Source: an uncultured Verrucomicrobiota bacterium
Lineage (GTDB): Bacteria > Verrucomicrobiota > Verrucomicrobiia > Palsa-1439 > CAZOTB01
Reading direction: 5' to 3'
Length of the DNA: 64,000 nt
NCBI GenBank assembly: GCA_964582645.1
Contig: CAZOTB010000001.1
Span: 2,845 to 66,844 of the forward strand
The notes beneath the pieces were generated by a model. The model saw nothing but the letters and a program-made list of their open reading frames with translations, made no database searches and was not told the DNA's origin. Below are positions 7,789 through 47,949 of this stretch, piece by piece (the stretch's first letter is position 1; each line of letters starts with the position of its first letter). Both the position numbers and the translations under genes were made by a program.

Positions 7789-10581
7789 ATGATCCAGCGT
7801 TTTCTTAAGACCAGCGCGATCTCCCTCTGTTTGCTGCTCGCAGCCACTCTCATGTGTCGCGGAGCAGACAACGAGGAGGACAAGATCCTTCTCAAGGTCA
7901 CCGGCCTCTGGGGCGGAAGCGTCACGCCGCGCAAGGATGCGCGCACGCCCTCCGACAAGGCCAGCGCCGAAATTCTCGACGCCTTCCTCAAGAAGTTCCC
8001 GCAATATGGTTTCCAGCCGACGCGGACGATCCGTTTGCCCGCGGGCAGCAAGGCGCAGGAATCGGCGTTGCTGATGGCGATGGCGGGACGCACCGCGGGC
8101 GACATCATCTACGTCAACTTCCGCGTGGTGGATAACTGGGTGCGGCAGAACTTCCTCGTCCCGCTCGATTCGTTCGTGATCGAGTACGCGGAGCAGGAAT
8201 GCAAGCGGCTCGGCATTGATTATCCCAAACCACTCACGCTCGACAAGGTGGACCCGGCATGGGTCGGCATCAACCCACAGACATGGGACACCATCTACCG
8301 CCCTGACACGAAGGGCAACTGGCACGTCTGGTCGTGGCCGTACTACGAGGTGGCCATGGCGATGTATTACCGCAAGGACGTGCTGCAGGAGAAGGCACCT
8401 GCGCTCAAGGCTGCCGGGCTGGAGGTGCGGCCGCCGCGCACCTGGGAAGAAGTCATCGAATATTGCAAGGCGCTCACCGACCCGACGAAGGGCGAGTTCG
8501 GTTTCCAAAACACCACGTACGCTGGCTGGTATTTTGCAGACCTGTTGTGGCAGGGCGGCGTCGAGATCGTCGAGCGCGATACGAATCTGCAATGGCACGT
8601 CACGTGGGATTCGCCCGGCACGATTGACACGGTCCGGTTCTGGCGGGAGCTGACCAACACCGAGGTGACGAAGGACGGGAAAACGAGTTTTGTCGCGATG
8701 GACTCCGCGCGTTCCGCCACGCGCATGGGTTTCGGCGAAGGCAAGGCGGCTTTCATGTGGGCGTACTCTTCCGAGTTGAGCCTCGGCGGTTATCAGAACC
8801 TCGACCCGGAGGTGCTGGGCGCGGTGCCGTTGCCGGCCGGTCCCGTGCAGACGACGGAGGGAAAATCGCCCGAGGAATTGCTGGCGAAATACCCGCACCC
8901 GAACAAGAAGGGCTGGATTCTCTTCCCCAACGGTCGCCAGGCGCCGGCGAAGTCGCTGGTGAACTTCGGCGACGGCTGGCGCATTCGCGGCAACGAAATC
9001 AATGCGGCCATGTGGGGCATCTGCTCGCTCTGCACCGATCCGAAACGCCAGCGCGCAGCGTGGGAGTGGCTGAAATTCCAGAACAGCGACGAAGCTCGGC
9101 GCATCCGCACCACCGTGTTGGTCGAGAACGGCAGCGCCATCAGTGTGCGTCCCGACCTGCTCAAGCGGTACGGGTTCGAGGAATACTACGAGCAGGTGCC
9201 GAAAGATTGGCGCGAGGCGAACGAGGACGTGTTCCGCACCGGCCGTCCCGAGCCGAACGGGAAAAACTGCCAGTACGTTTATGATTTCATCGAGATGCCG
9301 GCGCGCGATGCGGCGGAGTTCGCTTCCCTGCCGAATCGTCGCGCCCGGATGAACAATCCGATCGTCCGTGAATCCTGGCGCAAAGCGATGGGTGGCAACG
9401 ACGACGCACTGGTGGCCAAGATGCGTTCCGAGGGCGAGGTGAAGGAGTCCGACATCGCGTTGCTCAAGCAGGACACCGCGGAGATTCAGTCCAACGTCTT
9501 GCAGAGTCTCGAACGCGCCAAGCGCCGCATGCTCGATCAACTCCCCGAGGAGGAACTCTCGAAGTATCGCAAGTACGCCGTGCTCATCGTGATCGTGGTG
9601 ACGTGCATGTGCATCTTCGGTTTGTGGGCGATCCTCCGCTTTTACGGGAAGGATGCGAAAGGCCGAATGATCGAGCAGCCGCAGCCCTCCCGGGTGCATC
9701 TGACGGCGTGGTCGTTCATGGGGCTGGCGGTGTTGAGCGTGTTGGTCTGGAACTACTACCCGCTCGCGCGCGGCGCGGTCATTGCCTTCCAGAATTACCA
9801 GATCATGGGCGGCAGCGAGTTCGTCGGTCTCGACAACTTCGTCAAAGTTTTCATCGAACCGCTCTTCACCAAGGCGGTGATCAACACGCTCCTCTGGGTC
9901 GCGCTGCAACTGGGGCTGACGTTCTTCCCGCCGATCTTTCTCGCGATCATCCTGGACGAAATCCCCAAGGGGAAACTGTTCTTCCGCATCATCTTTTATC
10001 TGCCGGCGGTCATGAGCAGCCTGGTCGTTGCGTATCTCTGGCTGTGGATGTTCTCGCCGAACCCGGACGGCCTGCTGAACTCGCTTCTGATCAAAATGCA
10101 CCTGGTCAAACCGAGCGAACCGATGGCGTGGCTGACCCGGTCACCGATTCTGGCGATGATCTGTGTGATCATTCCCGGCATCTGGGCGGGCATCGGGCCG
10201 GGCTGCATCATCTACCTCGCGGCGCTCAAAAGCATTCCTGAGGATATCTACGAGGCGGCCGACCTGGACGGCGCAAGCACGTGGCGGAAAGTGTTCGGGA
10301 TCACGCTCCCGTACCTCAAACCGCTGGTGATCATCAATTTCGTCGGTGCGTTCATCGGCGCGTTCCGCAGTTGGGAGGGCATTTTCGTGATGACGGGCGG
10401 CGGTCCGAACGACGGCACCCATGTCATCGGCATGGAAGTCTGGTACAACGCGTTCGCCTATTTGCGTTTCGGCTACGCGACCGCCGTCGCCTGGATCATC
10501 GGCGCCGCGCTGGTGGGATTCACCGTGTATCAGTTGCGAATTTTGCGCAATGTCCGGTTCACAACAGCGAAGAGGGATTGA
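7789..10581 (+). CDS. ABC importer component: signal peptide and extracellular solute-binding (family-1-like) domain fused to a MalF-type inner-membrane permease
   Basis: ORF track, 930 aa. N-terminal signal MIQRFLKTSAISLCLLLAATLMC, ~550 aa SBP-like region, then a 6-TM permease with EAA motif IYEAADLDGASTWRKVFGITLPYLKP. Paralog of 15778..18186. Confidence 0.8.
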   Translation: MIQRFLKTSAISLCLLLAATLMCRGADNEEDKILLKVTGLWGGSVTPRKDARTPSDKASAEILDAFLKKFPQYGFQPTRTIRLPAGSKAQESALLMAMAGRTAGDIIYVNFRVVDNWVRQNFLVPLDSFVIEYAEQECKRLGIDYPKPLTLDKVDPAWVGINPQTWDTIYRPDTKGNWHVWSWPYYEVAMAMYYRKDVLQEKAPALKAAGLEVRPPRTWEEVIEYCKALTDPTKGEFGFQNTTYAGWYFADLLWQGGVEIVERDTNLQWHVTWDSPGTIDTVRFWRELTNTEVTKDGKTSFVAMDSARSATRMGFGEGKAAFMWAYSSELSLGGYQNLDPEVLGAVPLPAGPVQTTEGKSPEELLAKYPHPNKKGWILFPNGRQAPAKSLVNFGDGWRIRGNEINAAMWGICSLCTDPKRQRAAWEWLKFQNSDEARRIRTTVLVENGSAISVRPDLLKRYGFEEYYEQVPKDWREANEDVFRTGRPEPNGKNCQYVYDFIEMPARDAAEFASLPNRRARMNNPIVRESWRKAMGGNDDALVAKMRSEGEVKESDIALLKQDTAEIQSNVLQSLERAKRRMLDQLPEEELSKYRKYAVLIVIVVTCMCIFGLWAILRFYGKDAKGRMIEQPQPSRVHLTAWSFMGLAVLSVLVWNYYPLARGAVIAFQNYQIMGGSEFVGLDNFVKVFIEPLFTKAVINTLLWVALQLGLTFFPPIFLAIILDEIPKGKLFFRIIFYLPAVMSSLVVAYLWLWMFSPNPDGLLNSLLIKMHLVKPSEPMAWLTRSPILAMICVIIPGIWAGIGPGCIIYLAALKSIPEDIYEAADLDGASTWRKVFGITLPYLKPLVIINFVGAFIGAFRSWEGIFVMTGGGPNDGTHVIGMEVWYNAFAYLRFGYATAVAWIIGAALVGFTVYQLRILRNVRFTTAKRD

Positions 10582-37255: not shown

Positions 37256-37391
37256 CGCTCCCGTCAGTGCCCGACTTTCACGGAAGCCCCGTCTTTATTG
37301 GCGAATCCGCACTTTCGCTCCCGCTGGCACGATGCGTGTTAATGGTCTTTGCCGGAGCATGAACGAAACAAAACAAAGAAAGGAAAGTGTC

Positions 37392-38726
37392 ATGAATCAG
37401 CCCCTTGTTTGGAAACGGATCGGAGCAACGCGCGCACTCGGCTTCGCGATTCTCGCTGCCGCTTTCATCGCTCAACCATCACTTCTCCGCGCCGACGAGA
37501 CGTGCATGTCGCCGTACATGGCGAAGATCACCGGCCAGGAGGATTACGTGTATGTCTGGACGCTCGGCGTCGAAGGACTCGGCGACGGCTCGGACAAACT
37601 GGTCACCATTGATGCGCACCCCGCCTCGCCGACGTACGGCAAGGTGATCCACAGCGTGTCGGTGGGCGGACGGCACGAGGCGCACCACGGCGGGTTCACC
37701 GATGACCGCCGGCTGTTCTGGCTGTCGGGTCTCGACACAAGCCGCATTTTCATCTTCGACATTCGCACCGATCCCGGCAAACCGAAGCTCATCAAGACGA
37801 TTACAGATTTCACGAAAGCCACCGGCGGCGCGGTCGGGCCGCACGGCATCTACGCCATGCCGGGGCGCGTGATCATCCCGTGTCTCTCGAACGACAAGGA
37901 TCGAAACGGACGCACCGCTTTCGTCGAGTACACCAACGAGGGCAACTACATCGCCACGCACTGGATGCCCACCGACGACAACCCGCGCGGCGCGAAGATC
38001 GAAAAGGTTGCCGACGGGTACGGCTACGACCTGCGCGTGTTGCCGCGAAAAAACGTCATGCTCAGTTCGTCATTCACGGGTTGGAACAACTACATGATGG
38101 ACTTTGGCAAGATGCTCGCCGACCCGGAGGCGATGAAGCGGTTCGGGCAAACGATGGTGCTCTGGAATCTGCACACGCGCCAACCGCGCCAGGTGTTCCA
38201 CGTGCCCGGCGCGCCGCTCGAAGTGCGTTGGGCGTGGGGTGCGCGGAACAATTACGCGTTCACTGCCGCGGCGCTCACGGCGAAGCTCTGGCTCGTCTAT
38301 GAAGATACCGACGGCGAGTGGAAAGCGAAGGCCGTCGCGGACATTGGCGATCCGGCCAAAATCCCGCTCCCCGTGGACATCAGCATCAGCGCCGACGACA
38401 AGACGCTGTTTGTGTGCACGTTCATGGACGGCAAATGCCGTGTGTTCGACGTGTCCGACCCGCATCAGCCGCGACAGACTTACGAGGAAGTGATCGGCAA
38501 ACAGGTCAACATGGTTTCGCAAAGCTGGGACGGCAAGCGGCTGTACTTCACCACTTCGCTGCTCGCCAATTGGGACAAGAAGGGCGCGGACAACGACCAG
38601 TTCATCAAAGCGTACGATTGGGACGGCAAGAAGCTCACGCAGCGGTTCGCGATCGATTTCACTGAAGCCAAGCTCGGCCGCGCTCACATCATGCGGTTCG
38701 GCGCGAAGAGTCTTTATGCGGATTAA
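37392..38726 (+). CDS. Selenium-binding-protein (SBP56) family protein, secreted; methanethiol-oxidase (MtoX)-like
   Basis: Signal peptide, then TCMSPYMAKITGQEDYVYVWTLG...HHGGF...YDWDGKKL, typical of the SBP56 beta-propeller family. ATG at 37392 with AAAGGAAAG RBS. Confidence 0.8.
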   Translation: MNQPLVWKRIGATRALGFAILAAAFIAQPSLLRADETCMSPYMAKITGQEDYVYVWTLGVEGLGDGSDKLVTIDAHPASPTYGKVIHSVSVGGRHEAHHGGFTDDRRLFWLSGLDTSRIFIFDIRTDPGKPKLIKTITDFTKATGGAVGPHGIYAMPGRVIIPCLSNDKDRNGRTAFVEYTNEGNYIATHWMPTDDNPRGAKIEKVADGYGYDLRVLPRKNVMLSSSFTGWNNYMMDFGKMLADPEAMKRFGQTMVLWNLHTRQPRQVFHVPGAPLEVRWAWGARNNYAFTAAALTAKLWLVYEDTDGEWKAKAVADIGDPAKIPLPVDISISADDKTLFVCTFMDGKCRVFDVSDPHQPRQTYEEVIGKQVNMVSQSWDGKRLYFTTSLLANWDKKGADNDQFIKAYDWDGKKLTQRFAIDFTEAKLGRAHIMRFGAKSLYAD

Positions 38727-38818
38727 GGAGGAACGAACCATGTACCAGCTCATTACATCGCTCATGTCGCTCCCGCAGTGCGCCGTAGCGGCAATCAAAG
38801 ACTCCCCCTCACCTTTAT

Positions 38819-38893
38819 CCTCTCCCCCGGTGGGGAGAGGAAACAACCACGAGCACGCATTCGAGATGATCTCCTCTCCCCTTGGGGGAGAGG
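38819..38893. repeat. Two tandem copies of hairpin CCTCTCCCC-loop-GGGGAGAGG downstream of the SBP56 gene
   Basis: CCTCTCCCCCGGTGGGGAGAGG (38819-38840) and CCTCTCCCCTTGGGGGAGAGG (38873-38893); no U-tract follows either. Confidence 0.4.
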
Positions 38894-39060
38894 GCAGGGT
38901 GAGGGGTGCTGCTCGAAGTCCTCGCAGCTCACAAATCAACTCAGAGGTAGCCGGCCAGATGCGTCGCAACTCCGTTAGGAGCGTAATGTTTATAGCACGT
39001 CGTCTATCAGAATGGTCCAAGCCCCGTCAGGGGCGGCATGTGAAGCGCCACACGCAATCC

Positions 39061-39882
39061 ATGTCGCTCCATACGGAGCTTCAACCGGCGTTGCGCGGAC
39101 AAACCATAAACAGGTCGCCCCTGACGGGGCTCGTGCGATCGGTGCGGTGGGTCGCCGTTTGGTTCGTGGCGATCTTCTCCGCACTGGGCATGTTGGCATC
39201 GGGTGAGCAGAATCAGAAAGCCAACGCGCTTCCGGAGTTGGCCTTGGGTCGCACAGTCCTGCACGACTACGATCCGCCGAAGCCGGGCAGCTACGAGTTG
39301 CCCGCGATCAAGCTCGCGGCCGACGGCGCGATCCTCGGCGAAGACGGCAAGGCGCACCGGCTCCGCGAGATGTTCGACGGCAAGATCAGTGTGCTGGCGT
39401 TCATCTACACGCGTTGCACCGATCCGCGCGCGTGCCCGTACGCGACGCGCGTGCTGTACCAACTCCACCAGGTCAGCGGCGAAGACCCGGTCCTCGCCAA
39501 GAACCTGCACCTGGTCACGATGAGCTTCGATCCCGCGCATGACACGCCCGAGGTGATGTCGAAGTTCAAGAATCGCTACGAGCCGGAGCGACCGGGCGCG
39601 AAGTGGTCGTACCTGACCACCCAGCGGGCCGAGGACATCAAGGCGATCCTCGACGCGTATGGCCAGGCCGTGGATCGAAAGAAGAATGCAAACTCAGAAT
39701 CTGGCCCGTTCTTCCATCAACTGCGGGTGTACCTCGTGGACCGCAAGGGGATGATCCGCAACATCTACAGCTACGAGTTGCTCGATCCCCGGCTGGTCGT
39801 GACGGACATCCGCACGCTGTTACTGGAGGAACAGGCCAAGACAAGCGTGGCCGCAATGCGCCACGAGAACTACATAAAATAA
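39061..39882 (+). CDS. SCO1/SenC-family thioredoxin-like copper chaperone (membrane-anchored)
   Basis: C-terminal part of ORF 38716..39882: TM WVAVWFVAIFSALGMLASG, then ISVLAFIYTRCTDPRACPY (Cys pair, C-x5-C variant) ... HLVTMSFDPAHDTP. Start uncertain (ATG 39061 or a downstream GTG); the upstream part of the long ORF is hairpin-rich and probably non-coding. Confidence 0.65.
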   Translation: MSLHTELQPALRGQTINRSPLTGLVRSVRWVAVWFVAIFSALGMLASGEQNQKANALPELALGRTVLHDYDPPKPGSYELPAIKLAADGAILGEDGKAHRLREMFDGKISVLAFIYTRCTDPRACPYATRVLYQLHQVSGEDPVLAKNLHLVTMSFDPAHDTPEVMSKFKNRYEPERPGAKWSYLTTQRAEDIKAILDAYGQAVDRKKNANSESGPFFHQLRVYLVDRKGMIRNIYSYELLDPRLVVTDIRTLLLEEQAKTSVAAMRHENYIK

Positions 39883-39903
39883 CAACCAGAAAGGAATGCA
39901 GTC

Positions 39904-40473
39904 ATGACAACACAGAAACAAGTCAACGGCGTCAACGTGGAGCAATTGTTCCAGACGATTGATGCCATCAAGGTCACGCCCAAGATCGCGAAGTTCAAGT
40001 TCAGTGCGAAGAACCAGTGGCAGGGCGGCGGCCACAATCGCACCACCATCAACGAGTTCGAGGGCGCTTGCCAGCGGCACGCGCGGAAAGAGCCGTTCGT
40101 GTTGGACAATGACGAGCCGCCCGTCCTGCTCGGCAAGGACATCGGCGCGAACCCGGTCGAGCAGGTCTTGCACGCGCTCGCCGGTTGCCTGACGAGTTCG
40201 CTCGTCTATCACGCCGCCGCGCGCGGTATCAAACTCGACGAGGTCGAGTCCACCTACGAAGGCGACCTCGATCTGCACGGTTTCCTCGGACTCGATCCGA
40301 AGGTGCGCAACGGCTACGAGCAGCTCCGCGTCACGTTCAAAGTGAAAGGCGACGCGCCGCCGGAGAAGCTGCAGGAACTCGTCGAGCTCGCGCAGAAGCG
40401 TTCGCCGGTCTTCGACATCGTCACCCACGGCGTGCCGGTCAAGGTCACGCTGGCGAAAAGAAACTCGCAATGA
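39904..40473 (+). CDS. OsmC/Ohr-family peroxiredoxin-like protein
   Basis: 189 aa; [19 protein letters not shown] and the C-terminal pattern are typical of OsmC. RBS AAAGGAATG. Confidence 0.8.
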
Positions 40474-40886
40474 AGAACATGGCCATCGTGGTTCGCGACG
40501 ACGGGTTCGACAAGCTGCTCACGCCGCTGACGTTCGCATTCGTCCAGGCACGAAAGGGCGTCCAGGTGGACATCCTTTTCGTGCTCTGGGCAGTGCGGGC
40601 GTTGACGGAAGCTGGGTTGCGGTCGCTCAAAGTGAGTGGCTCGCATGCTGCCGAGGAAGCGTGGCTCAAGGAGAAGCTGGCGCGGGAGGGCGATCCGACC
40701 GACATCCACGAGTTCCTCAAGCTGCTCAAGAGCACGCGCAACGTGAGGCTTTATGGTTGCCGGTTGGCGGCCGCTACGTTCGAGGTCAATGAGTCCAACC
40801 TGATCCCCGAAGCAGATGGCATCGTGGACTCGGGTTGGTTCTTGAACGAGAAAGCGGTCCCGGCAGACCACTGCCAGTACTTCTGA
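40470..40886 (+). CDS. DsrE/DsrF-like (YchN-fold) sulfur-relay family protein
   Basis: ATG 40470 overlaps the osmC stop (ATGA). [45 protein letters not shown] resembles DsrE-family proteins. Confidence 0.6.
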
Positions 40887-40893
40887 ACAGGCA

Positions 40894-42195
40894 ATGACGG
40901 AGGATCATCCCATGCAAGCAACTCAACTCCCACCCGGCTTCAATGACCTGATGAAGTTCGGCTTGGTCGAAGCCCTCCTCGGACGCCGCTCGCGGCGATT
41001 CTTTCGCGGCGCGGAAATCCCGGATGGGCCGTTGGCATACAAATCCAAGCATCCGCCCATGCCGTTGTCTGAGTTGGAAAAACAACTCGTCGTCATGGCG
41101 TGCGGCGGCAACACCGGCTGGCACGACATGATCTACCGGGCCCAGCGTTACGCGCCGCACCTCTCGAACTACTCCGGCGCGGCGGGCGGGCGGGCGTTTC
41201 CCTCGGCGGCGGGATTCCACACCAGCAAAACGTTCTTCACGGACGACGACGGCGTGTACGTGCTCGACGTCCGCGACGAACCCGCGCAGGCGGAACGCGA
41301 TGAGGATGGATCGCTCGATCTGGAGACGCTGCTCGCAGCGAACCGTCGCCACATCCGCAAACTATGGGACGGTCGGCTCGGCCTCCCGGCGGAAGTGCCG
41401 TTCACCGAGGCGCACAACACCTGGGTGGCGAACCAGCCGGGAACGCTGCTGGTCATGCCCGTGGGAGATTTGTCGCAGCACGTGCTGCTCGCAATCTGTT
41501 ACATGCTCCAAAACGGACTGGTTCTTACCGATGACATCAATCGCCGTTCCATCCCGGGCATCGAGAAGTTCAGTGGTATCGTGGACGTGAGCAAGACGTG
41601 GCCGATCACGTTCGTCGAACAATGGTCGCTGGCCGAGTTGACGGTCGAACTCGGCACGAGCTGTTACGCGGGTGCGCTCGTGCTGCAATCCATGGGGCTC
41701 GGTGGCTGGATGTTCAACGGACTCGATCCATGGTCGGTGCTCGGCGCGAGCGGCGACCCGCGCGTGCCCGGATTGAAATTCCGCTACGACACCAACGACC
41801 GCTGGCCGTACCCGAACCCGACCGGCCTCGCGGGCGTGATGGAAGGATACTGTCCGCCGCATTACCCGAATATGCGCGCGGCGGTGGACGCGCTGTGCGA
41901 GCGCAAATTCGGCAAGGGCGGCCCGTTCCACGCCGGGACGCCCGGCCCGTGGAAGGATTCGGCAGGCGTTCGCTCCTCGGCGCAGGTCCACAGCGAGGAA
42001 TTTCGGGAATGCGTGGCTCTCCAGGCGCAGTATATCTACGACACCTTCGGCAAATTCCCCGGCACCGTCGCATCCATGTTTGTGATCATGTACCTCCAGG
42101 CGCATCATCTCGACCTGGAGTTCTACGACAAGTTCTACAAACCCGGCTCATACCTGCGGACGCATGCCGAGCACATGGAGCGATGGCACTCATAG
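40894..42195 (+). CDS. Nitroreductase-superfamily protein, SagB-type dehydrogenase-like
   Basis: RRSRRFF ... GRAFPSAAGFHT (SagB-like R..PSAG motif) ... second half SCYAGALVLQSMGLGGWMFNG (nitroreductase-like). Function unknown. Confidence 0.5.
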   Translation: MTEDHPMQATQLPPGFNDLMKFGLVEALLGRRSRRFFRGAEIPDGPLAYKSKHPPMPLSELEKQLVVMACGGNTGWHDMIYRAQRYAPHLSNYSGAAGGRAFPSAAGFHTSKTFFTDDDGVYVLDVRDEPAQAERDEDGSLDLETLLAANRRHIRKLWDGRLGLPAEVPFTEAHNTWVANQPGTLLVMPVGDLSQHVLLAICYMLQNGLVLTDDINRRSIPGIEKFSGIVDVSKTWPITFVEQWSLAELTVELGTSCYAGALVLQSMGLGGWMFNGLDPWSVLGASGDPRVPGLKFRYDTNDRWPYPNPTGLAGVMEGYCPPHYPNMRAAVDALCERKFGKGGPFHAGTPGPWKDSAGVRSSAQVHSEEFRECVALQAQYIYDTFGKFPGTVASMFVIMYLQAHHLDLEFYDKFYKPGSYLRTHAEHMERWHS

Positions 42196-43113
42196 CGGTG
42201 GCGGCGGGCGACCCGGACCTCCCCGGCCGCGCGGCGGACCGTGCTTGAAAAAACTTTCGTCGGGCGTGCCTTTCCACTGGCGCGGGATGAACGGGAACGT
42301 ATCCGTCACGTGGTAGTGATAGTTCCCTTGCGGAAACTCGGGCGTGACACCAAAGCGCCCGTTGCATTCGTCGAGGTCGCCCGCACCGGCAGCGTACTCG
42401 TAGTCGGCAACGAACGATCCGTCGTATTTGCCACCGGGGCCGCCGGAGCGCTGGCCGCTCTTGAGCCGGTAGCTCGATCTCACCTTCGTGAGTGGACTCT
42501 TGGCGTCCTTCGCATCGCTGTAACCCCACTGGGCGTAGATCGGAAACCCATCGGCAGCCCAGCCGATGAGCACCATCCTCGGTTGACCGCCCGTGAGTTT
42601 GGTGATGAGCCCGGTCGGCACGCCATGATAGTGATACGCGCCGGTCGGTTGCACGTGGGCGTTGTTCTGGTCAATGCCGAGCGGCACCGCGCCGGACATC
42701 GCCTCGTATTGCCAGCCCGAACTCCGATCGTTGTGCCACCATTCCGCGGCGCCGGGATCGAATACGACTCCGTTCAGCGCGACGCCGAACAATTGCATCC
42801 GCAACGGCGTCGGCTTCGACGCGACCTTGGGGTTGGTCATCACGCGGAAGGTGTACTGCTGTGGCGCAATCCGGTTTGGATTGCCGCGATTGGGAAACTG
42901 TCCCGTCTCGTGATCGGGAATACCGTTCGAGCGAATCACTCGCTGGTCGCCCTGAATCGTGATCGAAACCTGGTTTCGCGCGCTCGTTTCCGCCGGGGTT
43001 ATAATTGTCGGGTCCGTCGGGTCGTCATCGTGACCGGGGTGTGCGAACCCTCGGACTGCGCCGATGCAGAGATGGATTGCGACGGAGTAATGAAGCAAGT
43101 GAGCGGTGCGCAT
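42190..43113 (-). CDS. YHYH-domain secreted protein (predicted metal-binding)
   Basis: Motifs GAYHYHG and GNYHYHV; signal peptide from the internal ATG at 43113 (MRTAHLLHYSVAIHLCIGAVRGFA). The upstream extension of the listed ORF looks non-coding. Confidence 0.7.
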   Translation of the reverse strand: MRTAHLLHYSVAIHLCIGAVRGFAHPGHDDDPTDPTIITPAETSARNQVSITIQGDQRVIRSNGIPDHETGQFPNRGNPNRIAPQQYTFRVMTNPKVASKPTPLRMQLFGVALNGVVFDPGAAEWWHNDRSSGWQYEAMSGAVPLGIDQNNAHVQPTGAYHYHGVPTGLITKLTGGQPRMVLIGWAADGFPIYAQWGYSDAKDAKSPLTKVRSSYRLKSGQRSGGPGGKYDGSFVADYEYAAGAGDLDECNGRFGVTPEFPQGNYHYHVTDTFPFIPRQWKGTPDESFFKHGPPRGRGGPGRPPPPL

Positions 43114-43219: not shown

Positions 43220-45598
43220 TTGCGCATCGAAAAGGTGATGACGATCCTCAAACCGTTTGTCCGCTACATGCATTGGTTGCACACCCGCTGGCCCGCGGGC
43301 GGGGTCGAAAGACTGCCCGAGGTCGGCGAAGACGGGGCCACCTCCGTACCGGGCGTGCGCATCGTCGGCGATCTGACCGGCGTCCCGCTGTTGAAATTCT
43401 CCGCCGACACGGGTGCGCGTGCGGTGCAAGCCATCGTGAGGGAGATGCAGAAGGATGGAAGTGTGGAAGAATGGAAGGATGCGGGGGGCCAATCTTCCCC
43501 CCTCGATCTCGCCATCATCGGCGCCGGCGTCTCCGGCATCTCGGCGGCGCTCGAGGCGAAGAAAGCAGGCTTGCGTTTCCAGGTGTTCGAGGCGGTGCAG
43601 AATTTCTCCACCATCGTCAACTTCCCAAAAGGCAAACCGATCTACACCTACCCGACCGAGATGAAGCCGGCAGGGGAAATGAAGTTGAGCGCGAATGTGA
43701 AGGAGGCGTTGCTCGAGGAACTCGACGCGCAACGAAAGGCTGCCGGCATCGAACCGGTGCGTCAACGAATCGAGCGGATCGAGCGCAAGAGCGGGGAGCT
43801 GCTGTTGGTTGTAGCGGCCGCCGGCCCTGGCGGCAGGGGGAAAGACAATGCCACCGGGACGGCTGCTACTACAACTGTCCGCGCGCGCCACGTCATCGTC
43901 GCCATTGGACGCAGCGGCAACTACCGCAAGCTCGGCGTTCCGGACGAACAACTCGACAAAGTCTATAATCGCCTCTACGACCCGAAGGAGTACGCCGGCA
44001 AGCACGCCCTCGTCGTGGGCGGCGGCGATTCGGCCATGGAAACCGCCATCGCCCTCGCGACCTGCGGTGCGCACGTCGTGTTGAGCTATCGCGGCAAGGA
44101 GTTCTCGCGTCCCAAGCCCGGGAACATCGAGAAGATTCGCATGCTGGAACAAAATCCCTCGGCCGAAGTTGCGGTCGAGCGTCCTAGCTCCGACCGCGTC
44201 ACCACGGCTGCCGGCTCGCAGATGCGCGGAGACAAGCCTGCCGGCTCGTTGCGGTTGATGCTCGGCTCGAATGTGAAAGAAGTCCGCTCTGATACTGTCA
44301 CGATCAAGGACGCCGACGGACGGGAAGCCCCGCTCAATAACGATGTCGTCTTTATCATGATCGGCCGGGAAGCCCCGCTCGATTTCTTCCGTCGCTCCGG
44401 CATCGCCATCCGCGGGGAATGGACGGCGAAACGGTGGATCAGTTTCGGTCTCTTTTTTGCCGCGTGCGTGTTCCTCTACAACTGGAAGTCGGGCGGCGAC
44501 CTCAATCAACTGTTCAAAACCCGCCATTGGTTTCCGTACAACCTCGCATCGGTCACGCTGAGCGAGCCGGGCTTCTACTACTCACTGGCGTACTGCACGT
44601 GCGTGGTGCTGTTCGGGCTGGATCGGATGCGCCGACGCAAGACGCCGTACATCAAAGCCCAGACAGTGACGCTGATGGCGGTACAACTGATCCCACTGTT
44701 TCTGTTGCCCTACTTCATCCTGCCGGCAATGGGCTACGCAGGCTGGTTCGATACCGGCCTCGGCAAGACCATCGCGGACAATCTGTTCCCCGCGGCCAAC
44801 TACGGCCACGGCCGGGAATACTGGCGTGCGTTCGGCTTCATCCTCGCATGGCCGTTGTTCATCTGGAACTTCTTCACCTACCAACCGATGTGGTGGTGGC
44901 TCGTCATCGGGTTCGTCCAGACGTTCGTGATCATCCCCTTGATGATCTGGCGCTGGGGCAAAGGCGCGTATTGCGGCTGGGTCTGTTCCTGTGGCGCGCT
45001 GGCGGAAACGCTCGGCGACCGGCATCGCACCAAGATGCCCCACGGCCCACTCTGGAATCGGCTCAACATGATCGGCCAGATCGTGCTCGCCGTCGCGCTG
45101 CTATTGTTCGCGCTGCGGATCGTCGGTTGGATTTGGCCGGGCGGCAGAGCGGATCAAATCTATGGCGGACTGCTCTCGGGTTGGTCGCTGCTCGGCGTTC
45201 AACTCAACTACTATCACGTCGTGGACATCTTCCTGGCGGGCATCGTTGGAGTGGGGATGTATTTCTGGTTCAGCGGACGCGTCTGGTGCCGGTTCGCCTG
45301 TCCGCTCGCGGCGCTGATGCACATCTACGCGCGGTTCTCGCGTTTCCGCATCTTCCCCGAGAAATCGAAGTGCATTTCCTGCAACGTTTGCACCAGCGTC
45401 TGCCATCAGGGCATTGACATCATGAATTTCGCGAACAAGGGCCTGCCGATGCAGGACCCGGAGTGCGTGCGTTGCTCAGCCTGCGTGCAGGAATGCCCCA
45501 CCGGCACGCTGGCATTCGGACGGTTCGGTGACGACGGAAAAATCGTCTTGGACCACATCGCCGCTTCTCCCGTGCGCATGCGGGAAATGAAGAGATGA
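43220..45598 (+). CDS. Fusion protein: cytoplasmic FAD/NAD(P)-binding pyridine-nucleotide-disulfide-type oxidoreductase (YpdA/TrxB-like) plus C-terminal NapH/MauN-like membrane domain with two 4Fe-4S ferredoxin motifs
   Basis: DLAIIGAGVSGISAALEA and ALVVGGGDSAMETA (two Rossmann GxGxxG/A); then ~8 TM with CGWVCSCGA; then CISCNVCTSVCHQG and CVRCSACVQECPTG (CxxCxxCxxxCP). Confidence 0.7.
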   Translation: MRIEKVMTILKPFVRYMHWLHTRWPAGGVERLPEVGEDGATSVPGVRIVGDLTGVPLLKFSADTGARAVQAIVREMQKDGSVEEWKDAGGQSSPLDLAIIGAGVSGISAALEAKKAGLRFQVFEAVQNFSTIVNFPKGKPIYTYPTEMKPAGEMKLSANVKEALLEELDAQRKAAGIEPVRQRIERIERKSGELLLVVAAAGPGGRGKDNATGTAATTTVRARHVIVAIGRSGNYRKLGVPDEQLDKVYNRLYDPKEYAGKHALVVGGGDSAMETAIALATCGAHVVLSYRGKEFSRPKPGNIEKIRMLEQNPSAEVAVERPSSDRVTTAAGSQMRGDKPAGSLRLMLGSNVKEVRSDTVTIKDADGREAPLNNDVVFIMIGREAPLDFFRRSGIAIRGEWTAKRWISFGLFFAACVFLYNWKSGGDLNQLFKTRHWFPYNLASVTLSEPGFYYSLAYCTCVVLFGLDRMRRRKTPYIKAQTVTLMAVQLIPLFLLPYFILPAMGYAGWFDTGLGKTIADNLFPAANYGHGREYWRAFGFILAWPLFIWNFFTYQPMWWWLVIGFVQTFVIIPLMIWRWGKGAYCGWVCSCGALAETLGDRHRTKMPHGPLWNRLNMIGQIVLAVALLLFALRIVGWIWPGGRADQIYGGLLSGWSLLGVQLNYYHVVDIFLAGIVGVGMYFWFSGRVWCRFACPLAALMHIYARFSRFRIFPEKSKCISCNVCTSVCHQGIDIMNFANKGLPMQDPECVRCSACVQECPTGTLAFGRFGDDGKIVLDHIAASPVRMREMKR

Positions 45599-47949
45599 CC
45601 GCGGAAGAGATCAGATTGGCGGAAGACTCCCGCCGCGAGAAGAACTGGAAACGCTGGGGGCCGTATCCCTCCGAACGGCAGTGGGGGGACCGTGCGCGAA
45701 GATTATTCCGAGCGGGGCGACTCCTGGCATCATCTGTCACACGATCACGCGCGCAGCCGGGCCTATCGCTGGGGCGAGGACGGCCTTCTCGGGATCACCG
45801 ACCGGGAATGCCGCCTCTGTTTCGCCCTCGCATTGTGGAACGGCAAAGACCCGATCCTCAAAGAGCGGCTGTTCGGCTTGACCGGCCCCGAGGGAAATCA
45901 CGGCGAGGACGTGAAGGAGTGTTACTACTACCTCGACTCGACGCCGACGCACTCTTACATGAAGGCGCTCTACAAATATCCGCAGGCGGAATTCCCCTAC
46001 GCGCGGCTCGTCGAAGAAAACCGACGCCGTGGCAAGAACGAACTCGAATTCGAACTTACCGACACGGGCGAGTTCGACAACAACCGCTATTTCGACGTGA
46101 TCGCTGAGTACGCCAAGGCGGGCCCGGATGACATCCTCATTCGCGTCATCGTCGCCAATCGCGGCGCCGAGCCGGCGACACTGCACTTGTTGCCCACGCT
46201 CTGGTATCGCAACACATGGGTCTGGGGCTGCAAACACGACGGTTGCTGGATCAAACCGACGATCCGACAGGAAAACGACTCTACACTGGTCGGAGAGCAC
46301 GTCAGCTTCGGCAGACACCACCTGGTTGTGGACAGAGGTCCGGACGGCAAGCTTCCGCAATTCCTGTCCACCGAAAACGAAACCAACACGCGCAAGCTCT
46401 ACGGCGTGGATAACTGGACTTCGTACGTCAAGGATGCATTCAATGAATACCTGATCCACGGCAAGGCCGATCCGATCAATCCGAAGCACACCGGCACGAA
46501 GGTGGGCGCGCATTACCGGCTCGACGTGCCTGCGGGCAAGGAGGTCATGGTGAGGCTGCGGCTGTTTGCCGGTGCCGGCTTGGAGGGCCCGGCTCCGTCC
46601 GAGCCGCTTTCCAAGACCCGCGGCGCGGCAGGAGCCGCGCCCTCCAGCCTCCTTGACAAGGACTTCGATCGCATCTTCGCCGAGCGCAGCCGCGAGGCAG
46701 ACGAATTCTACACAGCGAGGCTTCCGAAAGACCTCACCACCGAAGAACGCCGCGTCGCTCGCCAGGCGTACGCGGGGCTGCTGTGGAGCAAACAGTTCTA
46801 TCATTACATCGTCCGCGACTGGCTCGAAGGTGATCCGAACCAACCGCCGCCGCCCGCCAGCCGAATGAATGGTCGCAACGCGGAGTGGCTGCACCTCTAC
46901 AACCGCGACGTGATCTCGATGCCCGACAAATGGGAGTATCCGTGGTTCGCGGCGTGGGACCTCGCATTCCACCTGATTCCATTCGCGACGGTGGACCCGC
47001 AATTCGCAAAGGACCAACTCACACTCTTCTTGCGCGAATGGTACATGCACCCGAACGGTCAGATCCCGGCCTACGAGTTCGCGCTCGGCGACGTGAACCC
47101 GCCCGTCCATGCGTGGGCTTGCTGGCGCGTGTACAAGATGACAGGCGCGCGCGGCGAACGCGACCGGCTGTTCCTCTCGCGCACGTTTCAAAAGCTGATC
47201 ATCAACTTCACGTGGTGGGTCAATCGCAAGGACGCCGACGGCAAGAACATATTCGGCGGCGGTTTCCTCGGCCTCGACAACATCGGTGTGTTCGACCGCA
47301 GCAAGCCGCTCCCAACGGGCGGCCATCTCGAACAAGCCGACGGCACCGCGTGGATGGCGTTCTATTGCGCGACGATGCTTTCGATGGCGCTCGAGCTGGC
47401 GAAAGACAACCCGGCCACCGAGGACATGGCCAGCAAATTCTTCGAACACCTCGTCGCGATCACCGACGCGATGAACACCCTCGGCGGTCACGGCCTCTGG
47501 GACGACGAGGACGGGTTCTCCTACGACCAACTCCACGTCAACGGTACTCACATCCGCTCAAGGTGCGCTCGATGGTGGGGCTGCTGCCGTTGATCGCGGT
47601 GGAAATCCTCGACGAGGAGACGCTGGCGAAACTGCCCGGCTTCCGCAAGCGGATGCAGTGGTTTCTCGAAAATCGCAAGGACCTCGCGAAGCACATCTCG
47701 TACATGGATTGTGAAGGCGGGAACGGTCACGGCTACCGGCTGCTGGCGATCCCGTCGCGTGAACGCCTGCAGCGCGCACTCCGCTACATGCTCGATGAGA
47801 ATGAATTCCTCTCGCCCTACGGCATCCGCGCCTCCGAGCCGGTGGTCGTTTTCCGCCAAGAACCGCCTCGGAGGGCAGCGTTCCTTCCGGCAAAAGCACG
47901 CGGCGAGCGACTTTCCAAACACGCTCTCAGATCGCTTTCCAATCTGTGA
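45595..47949 (+). pseudogene. Glycoside hydrolase family 63 (YgjK/processing-glucosidase-like) gene disrupted by at least two homopolymer frameshifts
   Basis: Three ORFs in three frames (45595.., 45692..47593, 46885..47949) together read as one GH63-like protein: [31 protein letters not shown] | [13 protein letters not shown]...[17 protein letters not shown] | [17 protein letters not shown].... Frame switches fall in a G6 run (45683-45688) and a C-run (~47554). Confidence 0.65.

Follow-up and report, generated by a model that had tools for sequence, protein, structure and literature searches.

The 64,000-nucleotide stretch of DNA analysed here (the window) belongs to a contig of an uncultured Verrucomicrobiota bacterium and contains a gene whose product joins two redox proteins that are otherwise known apart: an FAD- and NAD(P)H-binding flavoprotein and a membrane-embedded polyferredoxin of the NapH type. 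The gene is complete and begins with a TTG codon; an alternative ATG at 43238 would give a 786-residue form, which is the NCBI version. An earlier note on this DNA, made from the letters alone, had proposed such a fusion, and both a Pfam scan and the full-length homologues described below confirmed it. In the N-terminal half, Pyr_redox_3 (91 bits, cut-off 30) and Pyr_redox_2 (69.8 bits, cut-off 26.1) matched residues 96-399, and the two Rossmann motifs named in the note, GAGVSG and GGGDSA, were both found, at residues 101-106 and 267-272. Two stretches of the protein matched Fer4_5 (PF12801), the NapH/NosR-type module, with 33.1 bits against a gathering cut-off of 22. The ferredoxin region was recognised by Fer4_10 (above its gathering cut-off, residues 714-760), Fer4_21, Fer4_9 and Fer4_7. 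Among the NCBIfam models, none met its cut-off; the best matches were YpdA (1e-30) and NapH/MauN (2e-15), both scoring far under the curated cut-offs, so that the protein falls outside both families as these are defined. The features of the gene, of its surroundings and of related loci are collected in Table 1.

Table 1. Position of the fusion gene, its parts and its neighbours in the window (forward-strand numbering of the window), followed by selected genes at related loci (prefix L, numbering of the respective locus). aa, residues of the 792-residue protein; ORF, open reading frame; TM, transmembrane; AF2, AlphaFold2; ECF, extracytoplasmic function.
Feature	Position	Strand	Basis or remark
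Complete fusion gene, 792 aa	43220-45598	+	ORF and translation, identical calls on other contigs, full-length homologues
GD-motif segment TSVPGVRIVGDLTG...ARAVQAIV, aa 41-73	43340-43438	+	Strand and helix; relocated ahead of GxGxxG
FAD and NAD(P)H two-dinucleotide-binding module, aa 96-400	43505-44419	+	Pfam, NCBIfam, PDB sequence and Foldseek matches
GxGxxG (GAGVSG, aa 101-106)	43520-43537	+	Dinucleotide motif 1
GxGxxA (GGGDSA, aa 267-272)	44018-44035	+	Dinucleotide motif 2
Arg-rich stretch LSYRGKEFSRPKP	44081-44119	+	After second Rossmann motif
Membrane core, six predicted TM helices	44426-45274	+	Two AF2 models, hydropathy, Lys/Arg distribution
Conserved AWPL motif in predicted periplasmic short-helix segment	44846-44857	+	AF2, alignment
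Cys motif 1, CGWVCSC (CxxxCxC), aa 585-591	44972-44992	+	Directly after TM4; variant of NapH/NosR CX3CP
Cys motif 2, CRFACP, aa 690-695	45287-45304	+	Directly after TM6; canonical CX3CP
2x[4Fe-4S] ferredoxin domain, aa 714-763	45359-45508	+	Fer4 family matches; eight Cys invariant
Ferredoxin cluster motif 1, CISCNVCTSVC, aa 718-728	45371-45403	+	
Ferredoxin cluster motif 2, CVRCSACVQECP, aa 749-760	45464-45499	+	
MtoX cluster, one strand	37332-42195	+	Pfam and NCBIfam
YHYH-domain gene (PF14240, E 1e-74), probable signal peptide	42190-43113	-	Between MtoX cluster and fusion gene
GH63/MGH1-like glycosidase, 633-aa ORF	45692-47593	+	3' of fusion gene
GH63/MGH1-like remainder, 125-aa ORF, other frame	47572-47949	+	22-bp overlap with 633-aa ORF
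ECF sigma/anti-sigma directly upstream of fusion gene	L021, L022, L023, L026, L037, L061 (about 8000-10000)		
Further ECF sigma/anti-sigma sites	L029:4709-5011; L046:6120-7583; L055:8645-9328		
DUF547 next to fusion gene	L077:8987-9892; L046:9125-9889; L050; L062; L035; L022; L025; L029; L079		
DUF3179-FlgD_ig	L060:8295-9869; L069:8486-9985; 7 further loci		

A fusion of this kind could in principle arise from two genes joined by an assembly error or a frameshift, for which the earlier note had pointed to positions around 44400-44500; the continuous reading frame, the occurrence on three independent contigs, the invariant junction and the full-length homologues in other phyla let us dismiss this explanation with near certainty. 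The same 792-residue protein was called, letter for letter, on three independent metagenome contigs of the Joint Genome Institute (JGI), one of which spans 161 kb and has the gene order of the window. The junction itself (FFRRSG.x.RGEW, with the first transmembrane helix, TM1, directly after it) is invariant among close relatives. The fusion gene is thus confirmed as real and intact. Promoters and terminators were sought around it, and nothing rose over the shuffled background.

The architecture is also widespread. Searching 5.8 billion proteins with the fusion protein returned 4358 matches, and the best 120 of these, all cluster representatives, share 63-78% identity with it over 97-100% of the query (one fragment, 87%) and possess the same set of Pfam domains. 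The same fusion was sought in other genomes by scanning one genome per GTDB species: full-length relatives are encoded at no fewer than 571 loci, that is, in at least 571 species genomes, distributed over about ten phyla including Verrucomicrobiota, Acidobacteriota, Planctomycetota, Myxococcota, Latescibacterota, Gemmatimonadota, Desulfobacterota, Bacteroidota/Ignavibacteria and Eremiobacterota. Nearly all of these genomes are metagenome-assembled. When 1.84 billion cluster representatives were searched exhaustively with HMMER, 419 clusters came out at E <= 1e-30, full-length fused members reaching down to 26-30% identity. Public annotations of the homologues are generic, and JGI pipelines label some of them "NosR/NirI family". 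The earlier note had described the architecture as one not known to be characterised; in agreement with this, a full-text literature search for fusions of NAD(P)H flavoproteins with NapH-type proteins yielded no characterised member and no paper on the fusion, and, as stated above, no NCBIfam model reached its cut-off. The protein is accordingly a new, conserved and widespread combination of known modules. To follow its conservation we used a deep family alignment of 37 members with 26-59% identity, and two alignments of close homologues with 23 and 117 sequences.

The flavin module resembles, among solved structures, first of all the bacillithiol disulfide reductase YpdA/Bdr (7a76, 7a7b; E 1e-27), then thioredoxin reductase (TrxR) and ferredoxin-NADP+ reductases (FNR) of the TrxR type. 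Foldseek, run with an AlphaFold2 (AF2) model of mean predicted local distance difference test (pLDDT) score 75.8, ranked the relatives in the same order as sequence did (YpdA, E 4e-15). The glycines of both dinucleotide motifs are invariant in the deep family, and the Arg-rich stretch that follows the second Rossmann motif suggests, in our reading of the motif, that NADPH is the donor. When it comes to the chemistry, the description in the earlier note as disulfide-reductase-like is right for the fold and wrong for the active site. The alignments of 23 and 117 close homologues contain no invariant cysteine in the first 400 residues, a search of the module for a TrxR-type CxxC found none, and the sole cysteine of the module, at position 282, is not conserved. 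In the HMMER alignment to 7a76 and 7a7b, the YpdA cysteine of GGGPCG pairs with the serine of GAGVSG, a position that is also occupied by a residue other than cysteine in the family consensus. Given that no redox cysteine is conserved in it, the module should act in the manner of a TrxR-type FNR, as a converter of NAD(P)H to one-electron transfer. Of note for the sequence of this particular protein, a low-complexity insertion rich in Ala, Gly and Thr, AAAGPGGRGKDNATGTAATTT (window 43814-43876, residues 199-219), occurs in none of the aligned homologues, and the AF2 model gives it a pLDDT below 50.

The order of elements within the flavin module is unusual. TrxR-type flavoproteins normally close their FAD domain with a GD motif and a last helix. 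Here, the corresponding segment stands at the N-terminus, ahead of the GxGxxG motif, and it does so in 37 of 37 deep members, the glycine of the GD motif being invariant. The AF2 model places a strand at residues 40-44 and a helix at residues 52-72 of this segment (numbering of the 786-residue form). When we restored the usual order in silico by moving residues 25-82 behind residues 90-402, the match to the TrxR profile TIGR01292 widened from positions 2-184 to positions 2-296 of 300 and its score rose from 60.2 to 66.2 bits; a lipoamide dehydrogenase profile likewise spanned the moved segment after this operation. Since the GD segment is N-terminal and its relocation extends the profile match, the flavin module is circularly permuted. 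As a consequence of the permutation, its C-terminus is free to lead directly into TM1.

For the membrane core, we compared AF2 models of the full-length protein and of residues 395-792 alone. Both show the same six long helices (residues 403-423, 450-472, 476-506, 558-579, 610-638 and 664-685), fewer than the approximately eight transmembrane helices counted in the earlier note. The hydrophobic stretch around the AWPL motif (residues 534-550) is modelled as short periplasmic helices and not as a seventh span. The predicted topology has both termini inside, and Lys and Arg are enriched in the putative inside loops. Because the N-terminal module binds NAD(P)H and the protein has no signal peptide, this module must reside in the cytoplasm, and with an even number of transmembrane helices both Cys motifs and the ferredoxin domain should be cytoplasmic as well. 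We infer from the models and the charge distribution a six-helix topology in which every predicted cofactor site faces the cytoplasm. This arrangement agrees with the accepted topology of NapH and NosR.

The residues expected to carry the Fe-S clusters or metals are well maintained. Cys motif 1 lies in a region matched by Fer4_5 (residues 569-605); among the deep members, Cys585 and Cys589 are invariant, Cys591 is retained in at least 90%, the pattern G..AET.GD..R after the motif is kept, and one member has CxxxCP at this position. Cys motif 2 occurs as W-C-R-x-x-C-P-L, with its C, R, C and P invariant in the same set, in which all eight ferredoxin cysteines are invariant too. The CGWVCSC segment and the two ferredoxin motifs announced by the earlier note are therefore present, with the correction that CH, not CP, closes the first ferredoxin motif. 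The NapH/MauN profile match runs from TM4 to the end of the protein, which stops about 30 residues beyond the ferredoxin domain. For the membrane part, the PDB gave no sequence match, and Foldseek returned no hit below E = 1 with a model of the transmembrane region only. Besides the four Fe-S/Cys motifs, the only cysteine invariant in close homologues is Cys416; this residue and the other transmembrane cysteines, 459 and 461, are not conserved among the deep members. Conserved intramembrane residues at this depth are Gly466, Gln489 (TM3) and Pro573 (TM4), and almost no periplasmic residue is conserved, the WPL motif excepted. The fact that the dinucleotide motifs, the Cys motifs and the ferredoxin cysteines are kept at 26-59% identity indicates that the redox chain is the conserved function. 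Judged by these motifs and the models, the conserved core would comprise an NAD(P)H site, FAD, two [4Fe-4S] clusters and cysteines at the membrane face, all on one side of the membrane.

We then compared the protein with known systems. [quoted passage not shown] The fusion protein differs from them in its scores (57 against a cut-off of 213 and 40 against 234 bits), in having two additional N-terminal transmembrane helices and an NAD(P)H flavoprotein, and in its motif 1, which reads CxxxCxC without the proline of CX3CP, whereas motif 2, CRFACP, is canonical. Furthermore, no nap or mau families were found among the genes called within 10 kb on either side of the fusion gene, and none recur at related loci. 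In NosR, NirI and PceC, as in the fusion protein, a single chain unites a flavin domain with a NapH-like core and a cytoplasmic 2x[4Fe-4S] domain; NosR is the nearest architectural precedent of the fusion. We take the CGW.C..GAL.E pattern of the fusion protein to resemble the first motif of NosR. The flavin domain of NosR and PceC lies in the periplasm, binds FMN and is flavinylated through ApbE (PMC8238504), whereas that of the fusion protein is predicted to be cytoplasmic, is of the FAD/NAD(P)H type and has a different fold; the fusion scores 22 bits against the NosR/NirI cut-off of 1000 (NF046105) and has no Pfam match to FMN_bind. CcoG/FixG/RdxA/YccM proteins are similar in being membrane proteins with cytoplasm-facing [4Fe-4S] clusters and Cys-based sites. 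They lack a flavin module, in turn the fusion lacks their periplasmic C-terminal immunoglobulin-like domain, and no CcoG model appeared among the best 25 of the 72 families that the C-terminal half matched at E <= 1. The membrane part alone matched 3 families, and CcoG was not one of these either.

On the flavoprotein side, YpdA/Bdr (7a76, 7a7b, 7apr) is the nearest solved relative of the flavin module in both sequence and fold. YpdA is soluble, however, and has a cysteine in GGGPCG where the fusion protein has a serine, and its fold is not permuted as that of the fusion is; the scores of 106.8 bits for the fusion and 111 bits for the isolated module stay below the TIGR04018 cut-off of 339.9. 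Against TrxR (TIGR01292) the protein reaches 55-66 bits, the cut-off being 343, and it is without CxxC. TrxR-type FNRs (3ab1, 3lzw, 6gar) share the fold, are likewise without the CxxC disulfide and transfer NADPH electrons to Fe-S proteins, which by analogy makes them the best functional counterpart of the flavin module, even though they are soluble and unpermuted, work with a separate ferredoxin and are less similar in sequence than YpdA. Finally, DsbD and CcdA have in common with the fusion protein only the general idea of directing cytoplasmic reducing power toward the envelope: DsbD is a thiol-disulfide cascade with pairs of transmembrane cysteines and without flavin or Fe-S, and the fusion has neither a Pfam DsbD match nor, as noted, a transmembrane cysteine conserved in the deep family. 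Taken by profile scores and motifs, the protein fits the Pfam definitions of Pyr_redox_2/3 and Fer4_5 and fails those of YpdA, TrxR, NapH/MauN, NosR, CcoG and DsbD.

Upstream of the fusion gene, the window harbours a one-strand cluster around the methanethiol oxidase MtoX (NF052453, 754 bits, over the cut-off), with genes for SCO1/SenC, OsmC, a weak DsrE-like protein and a 433-residue protein (40894-42195) for which Pfam and NCBIfam gave no match. It has the appearance of a unit for the detoxification of methanethiol or sulfur; on the source contig, a sigma-54 activator gene lies upstream of it. The YHYH gene is divergent from the fusion gene, from which it is separated by about 106-124 bp. 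On the 3' side, the GH63/MGH1-like gene is split into two frames, and because the split is identical on two independent contigs (L081, L082), it is a real frameshift or a pseudogene and not an assembly error. The earlier note had seen a meaningful context in the adjoining periplasmic redox genes. When we searched 80 related loci by tblastn with MtoX, SCO1, OsmC, the DsrE-like protein, the 433-residue protein and the YHYH protein, there were no matches, and the GH63-like protein had a single one within 10 kb. Given that 0 of the 80 loci keep the neighbouring periplasmic redox genes, their proximity to the fusion gene is a local coincidence.

In the same 80 loci, we clustered all ORFs all-against-all. 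The largest real neighbour cluster was an extracytoplasmic function (ECF) sigma factor, present in 22 of 81 loci and owing part of this frequency to synteny within lineages. In a clade of Chthoniobacterales, the genes for the ECF sigma factor and the anti-sigma factor and the fusion gene follow each other on the same strand at distances of -3 to 126 bp, and the arrangement is similar in Desulfobacterota; the anti-sigma factors are DUF3379-like, zf-HC2 or RskA proteins. This organisation suggests an ECF-controlled, stress-linked expression of the fusion in several lineages. Two kinds of exported protein recurred next to the fusion gene. One is a DUF547 protein, found in nine loci, which starts with a signal peptide and in which a C-x4-C-P motif (HxAxxCAxxxCP) is invariant; this motif is possibly a periplasmic dithiol or metalloid-binding site. 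The other, a DUF3179 domain fused to FlgD_ig, is encoded just upstream and on the same strand in nine loci of Latescibacterota and Gemmatimonadota, two of which also hold an alginate-export-type porin downstream. In two Verrucomicrobiota loci (L001:12283-12852, L029:7278-7817), a pair that includes the closest relative of the fusion gene in the window, the next gene downstream, only 0-3 bp away, encodes a MOSC protein; in L001, the start of the fusion gene has a 3-bp overlap with the glutamate dehydrogenase gene.

A further recurrent neighbour puts the fusion gene inside or beside organoarsenical clusters (arsM-arsS, arsenosugar-type). The radical SAM protein ArsS is encoded within 10 kb in 8 of the 80 loci, which represent about four independent lineages dispersed across the family tree and belong to Bacteroidota (L077), Chthoniobacterales (L022, L025) and Eremiobacterota/Acidobacteriota (L003, L004, L005), together with L032 and L056. 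According to a binomial estimate, this linkage is far over chance. In the Bacteroidota locus (L077:6287-15384), the genes are tightly arranged on the same strand in the order ArsS, a 284-residue protein without family match, DUF547, the fusion protein, a family 2 glycosyltransferase (GT2), a PMT_2-like protein, TIGR04282 and an AhpD-like TIGR04169 protein, with scores of 423 bits for ArsS (TIGR04167, cut-off 300), 199 for TIGR04282 (cut-off 134) and 162 for TIGR04169 (cut-off 120). The Chthoniobacterales loci (L022:5927-15292 and L025) have nearly the same gene set, plus arsM and an inserted ECF sigma/anti-sigma pair. In Acidobacteriota and Eremiobacterota loci (for example L004:12413-14607), the fusion gene is convergent with arsS-arsM at a distance of about 100 bp. 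The ArsM proteins of a Baltobacteraceae (Eremiobacterota) bin, L003:3539-4714, and an Acidoferrum (Acidobacteriota) bin, L004:13432-14607, both from the same study series, share 95% identity; this points to a recent transfer or a binning error, so that L003 and L004 do not count as independent.

Considering all 80 related loci, DUF547 is a neighbour in 9, GT2 in 12 and TIGR04282 in 4. The reverse analysis gave a different picture: the fusion was present in 0 of 80 metagenome ArsS loci, 37 of them at least 8 kb long, while TIGR04169 occurred in 57, TIGR04282 in 21 and DUF547 in 6 of the same loci. We therefore dropped the idea that the fusion is a core arsenosugar gene. It is an occasional recruit to arsM-arsS clusters, not a core member of them, and a full-text search of the literature on arsenosugar clusters found no mention of such a protein. 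The window itself contains neither arsS nor arsM.

How might the fusion protein work? We infer which cofactors are bound, the direction in which electrons flow and the identity of the acceptor from the features described above, and our leading, still tentative, proposal is a single-polypeptide Fe-S flavoprotein of the inner membrane that oxidises NAD(P)H, with quinone as the most likely acceptor. The permuted FAD module would take a hydride from NAD(P)H, probably NADPH, in the cytoplasm and hand single electrons to the C-terminal 2x[4Fe-4S] domain on the same side. From there, electrons would proceed to the two conserved Cys motifs that lie where TM4 and TM6 end on the cytoplasmic side and which, as part of a NapH/NosR-type core, would hold either a further cluster or a metal. 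The final acceptor should be located in or at the membrane, and with the quinone pool as the favoured candidate the protein would be an NAD(P)H:quinone (or membrane-acceptor) oxidoreductase. Our reason for favouring quinone is that the closest characterised protein to the core, NapH, is considered the subunit that binds quinone in its complex (PMC8238504). That no neighbour of the fusion gene is constant in the 80 related loci we count in favour of a protein acting on its own.

Several points weigh against this proposal. The argument for quinone comes from a single source, homology to NapH, which is distant (57 bits against the cut-off of 213), and to our knowledge no one has mapped where NapH binds quinone. 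The arsM-arsS, DUF547/DUF3179 and MOSC contexts point to acceptors other than quinone. The ferredoxin domain has low pLDDT in both AF2 models, and these models are without clusters. Moreover, the periplasmic loops are strongly conserved within close orthologues (D511, D520, F523-P524, R532-R536), which could equally mean that a periplasmic partner or substrate is involved.

The last point leads over to a different reading, a conduit in which NAD(P)H electrons cross the membrane through the NapH-like core to a periplasmic client. Such a protein would be a flavin/Fe-S counterpart of DsbD/CcdA, as the earlier note had it, or of NADPH oxidase/STEAP-type reductases. NapH-like proteins have been proposed, without proof, to pass electrons across the membrane to extracytosolic flavoproteins (PMC8238504), and in addition to the loop conservation among close orthologues, the exported neighbours (DUF547 and DUF3179-FlgD_ig, nine loci each, and YHYH in the window) would be in line with a periplasmic client. 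However, in the AF2 models and by the distribution of Lys and Arg all predicted cofactor sites are cytoplasmic, and the predicted periplasmic side has no haem, flavin or Cys motif. The loops are not conserved in the deep family, the recurrent neighbours at the 80 loci include no FMN_bind or NapG-like partner, and the periplasmic neighbours in the window are absent from all 80. With six transmembrane helices and both the Cys motifs and the ferredoxin domain on the cytoplasmic side, the analogy to DsbD/CcdA in particular found no direct support. We regard a cross-membrane role as possible, and a conduit of this form as unlikely.

Alternatively, the membrane-face cysteines may bind a soft metal(loid), such as Cu(II) or a pentavalent (methyl)arsenical, which would be reduced at the cytoplasmic face by NADPH via FAD and Fe-S. 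A precedent exists in CcoG, a member of the NapH superfamily that acts as a cupric reductase and has two [4Fe-4S] clusters and two Cu sites, its physiological donor being unknown (PMC7558416). Consistent with metal(loid) binding, Cys motif 1 offers three cysteines, and the linkage to arsM-arsS, seen far over chance in 8 of the 80 loci and in about four independent lineages, would fit an arsenical substrate, all the more so as the enzyme reducing pentavalent methylarsenical (MAs(V)) is still to be found (PMC13641113). Yet the third cysteine of motif 1 is not universal, no CcoG profile matched at E <= 1 among the families listed, none of the 80 metagenome ArsS loci carries the fusion, the window is without arsS and arsM, and most loci are without metal-related neighbours, which together make a metal(loid) reductase rather improbable.

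The same ArsS linkage, in eight loci, and the MOSC gene directly downstream in L001 and L029 could also be read as a sign of clients. The fusion would then be a membrane-anchored FNR-ferredoxin unit that feeds low-potential electrons to enzymes such as the radical SAM protein ArsS or MOSC molybdoenzymes, with a membrane part serving mainly as anchor or regulator. The order of an NADPH flavoprotein and 2x[4Fe-4S] would suit the needs of such clients, and varied neighbours are what one expects of a general donor. Against this stands the conservation of the membrane core and Cys motifs, which equals that of the flavin module and argues that the membrane part is no mere anchor; ArsS loci are normally without the fusion, and bacteria usually employ soluble flavodoxin or ferredoxin as electron donors for client enzymes of this kind. 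We consider a donor unit of this type rather doubtful.

Going one step further, the fusion could be seen as a "Rosetta stone", telling us that a TrxR/FNR-type NADPH flavoprotein feeds the cytoplasmic Fe-S domains of NapH, NosR and CcoG. The fusion itself could be a reductase that is driven by NADPH and acts on metalloid species at the membrane face, perhaps the one for pentavalent methylated arsenicals. If true, it would supply the trivalent substrates for ArsM and ArsS, and its recruitment to arsM-arsS-DUF547-glycosyltransferase clusters in Bacteroidota, Chthoniobacterales, Acidobacteriota and Latescibacterota would be explained. We present this combined idea as a long shot.

Returning to the NAD(P)H-oxidising membrane flavoprotein that we tentatively favour, the relevance of the fusion reaches beyond the family itself. 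Fe-S proteins of the NapH, NosR and CcoG types serve nitrate, nitrous oxide and organohalide respiration as well as copper handling, and the fusion gives experimental access to how electrons are supplied to their cytoplasmic clusters and how charge passes across the membrane. The fusion hints at an electron source for NapH/NosR-type proteins and at what the donor of CcoG might look like. Being widespread and equipped with a built-in NAD(P)H/FAD donor, it should be a tractable object for spectroscopy, cryo-EM and acceptor screening, and it adds a circularly permuted form to the TrxR fold. Finally, the links to arsenic clusters and ECF sigma factors suggest a role in stress or in the chemistry of metalloids in abundant, poorly cultured soil phyla.

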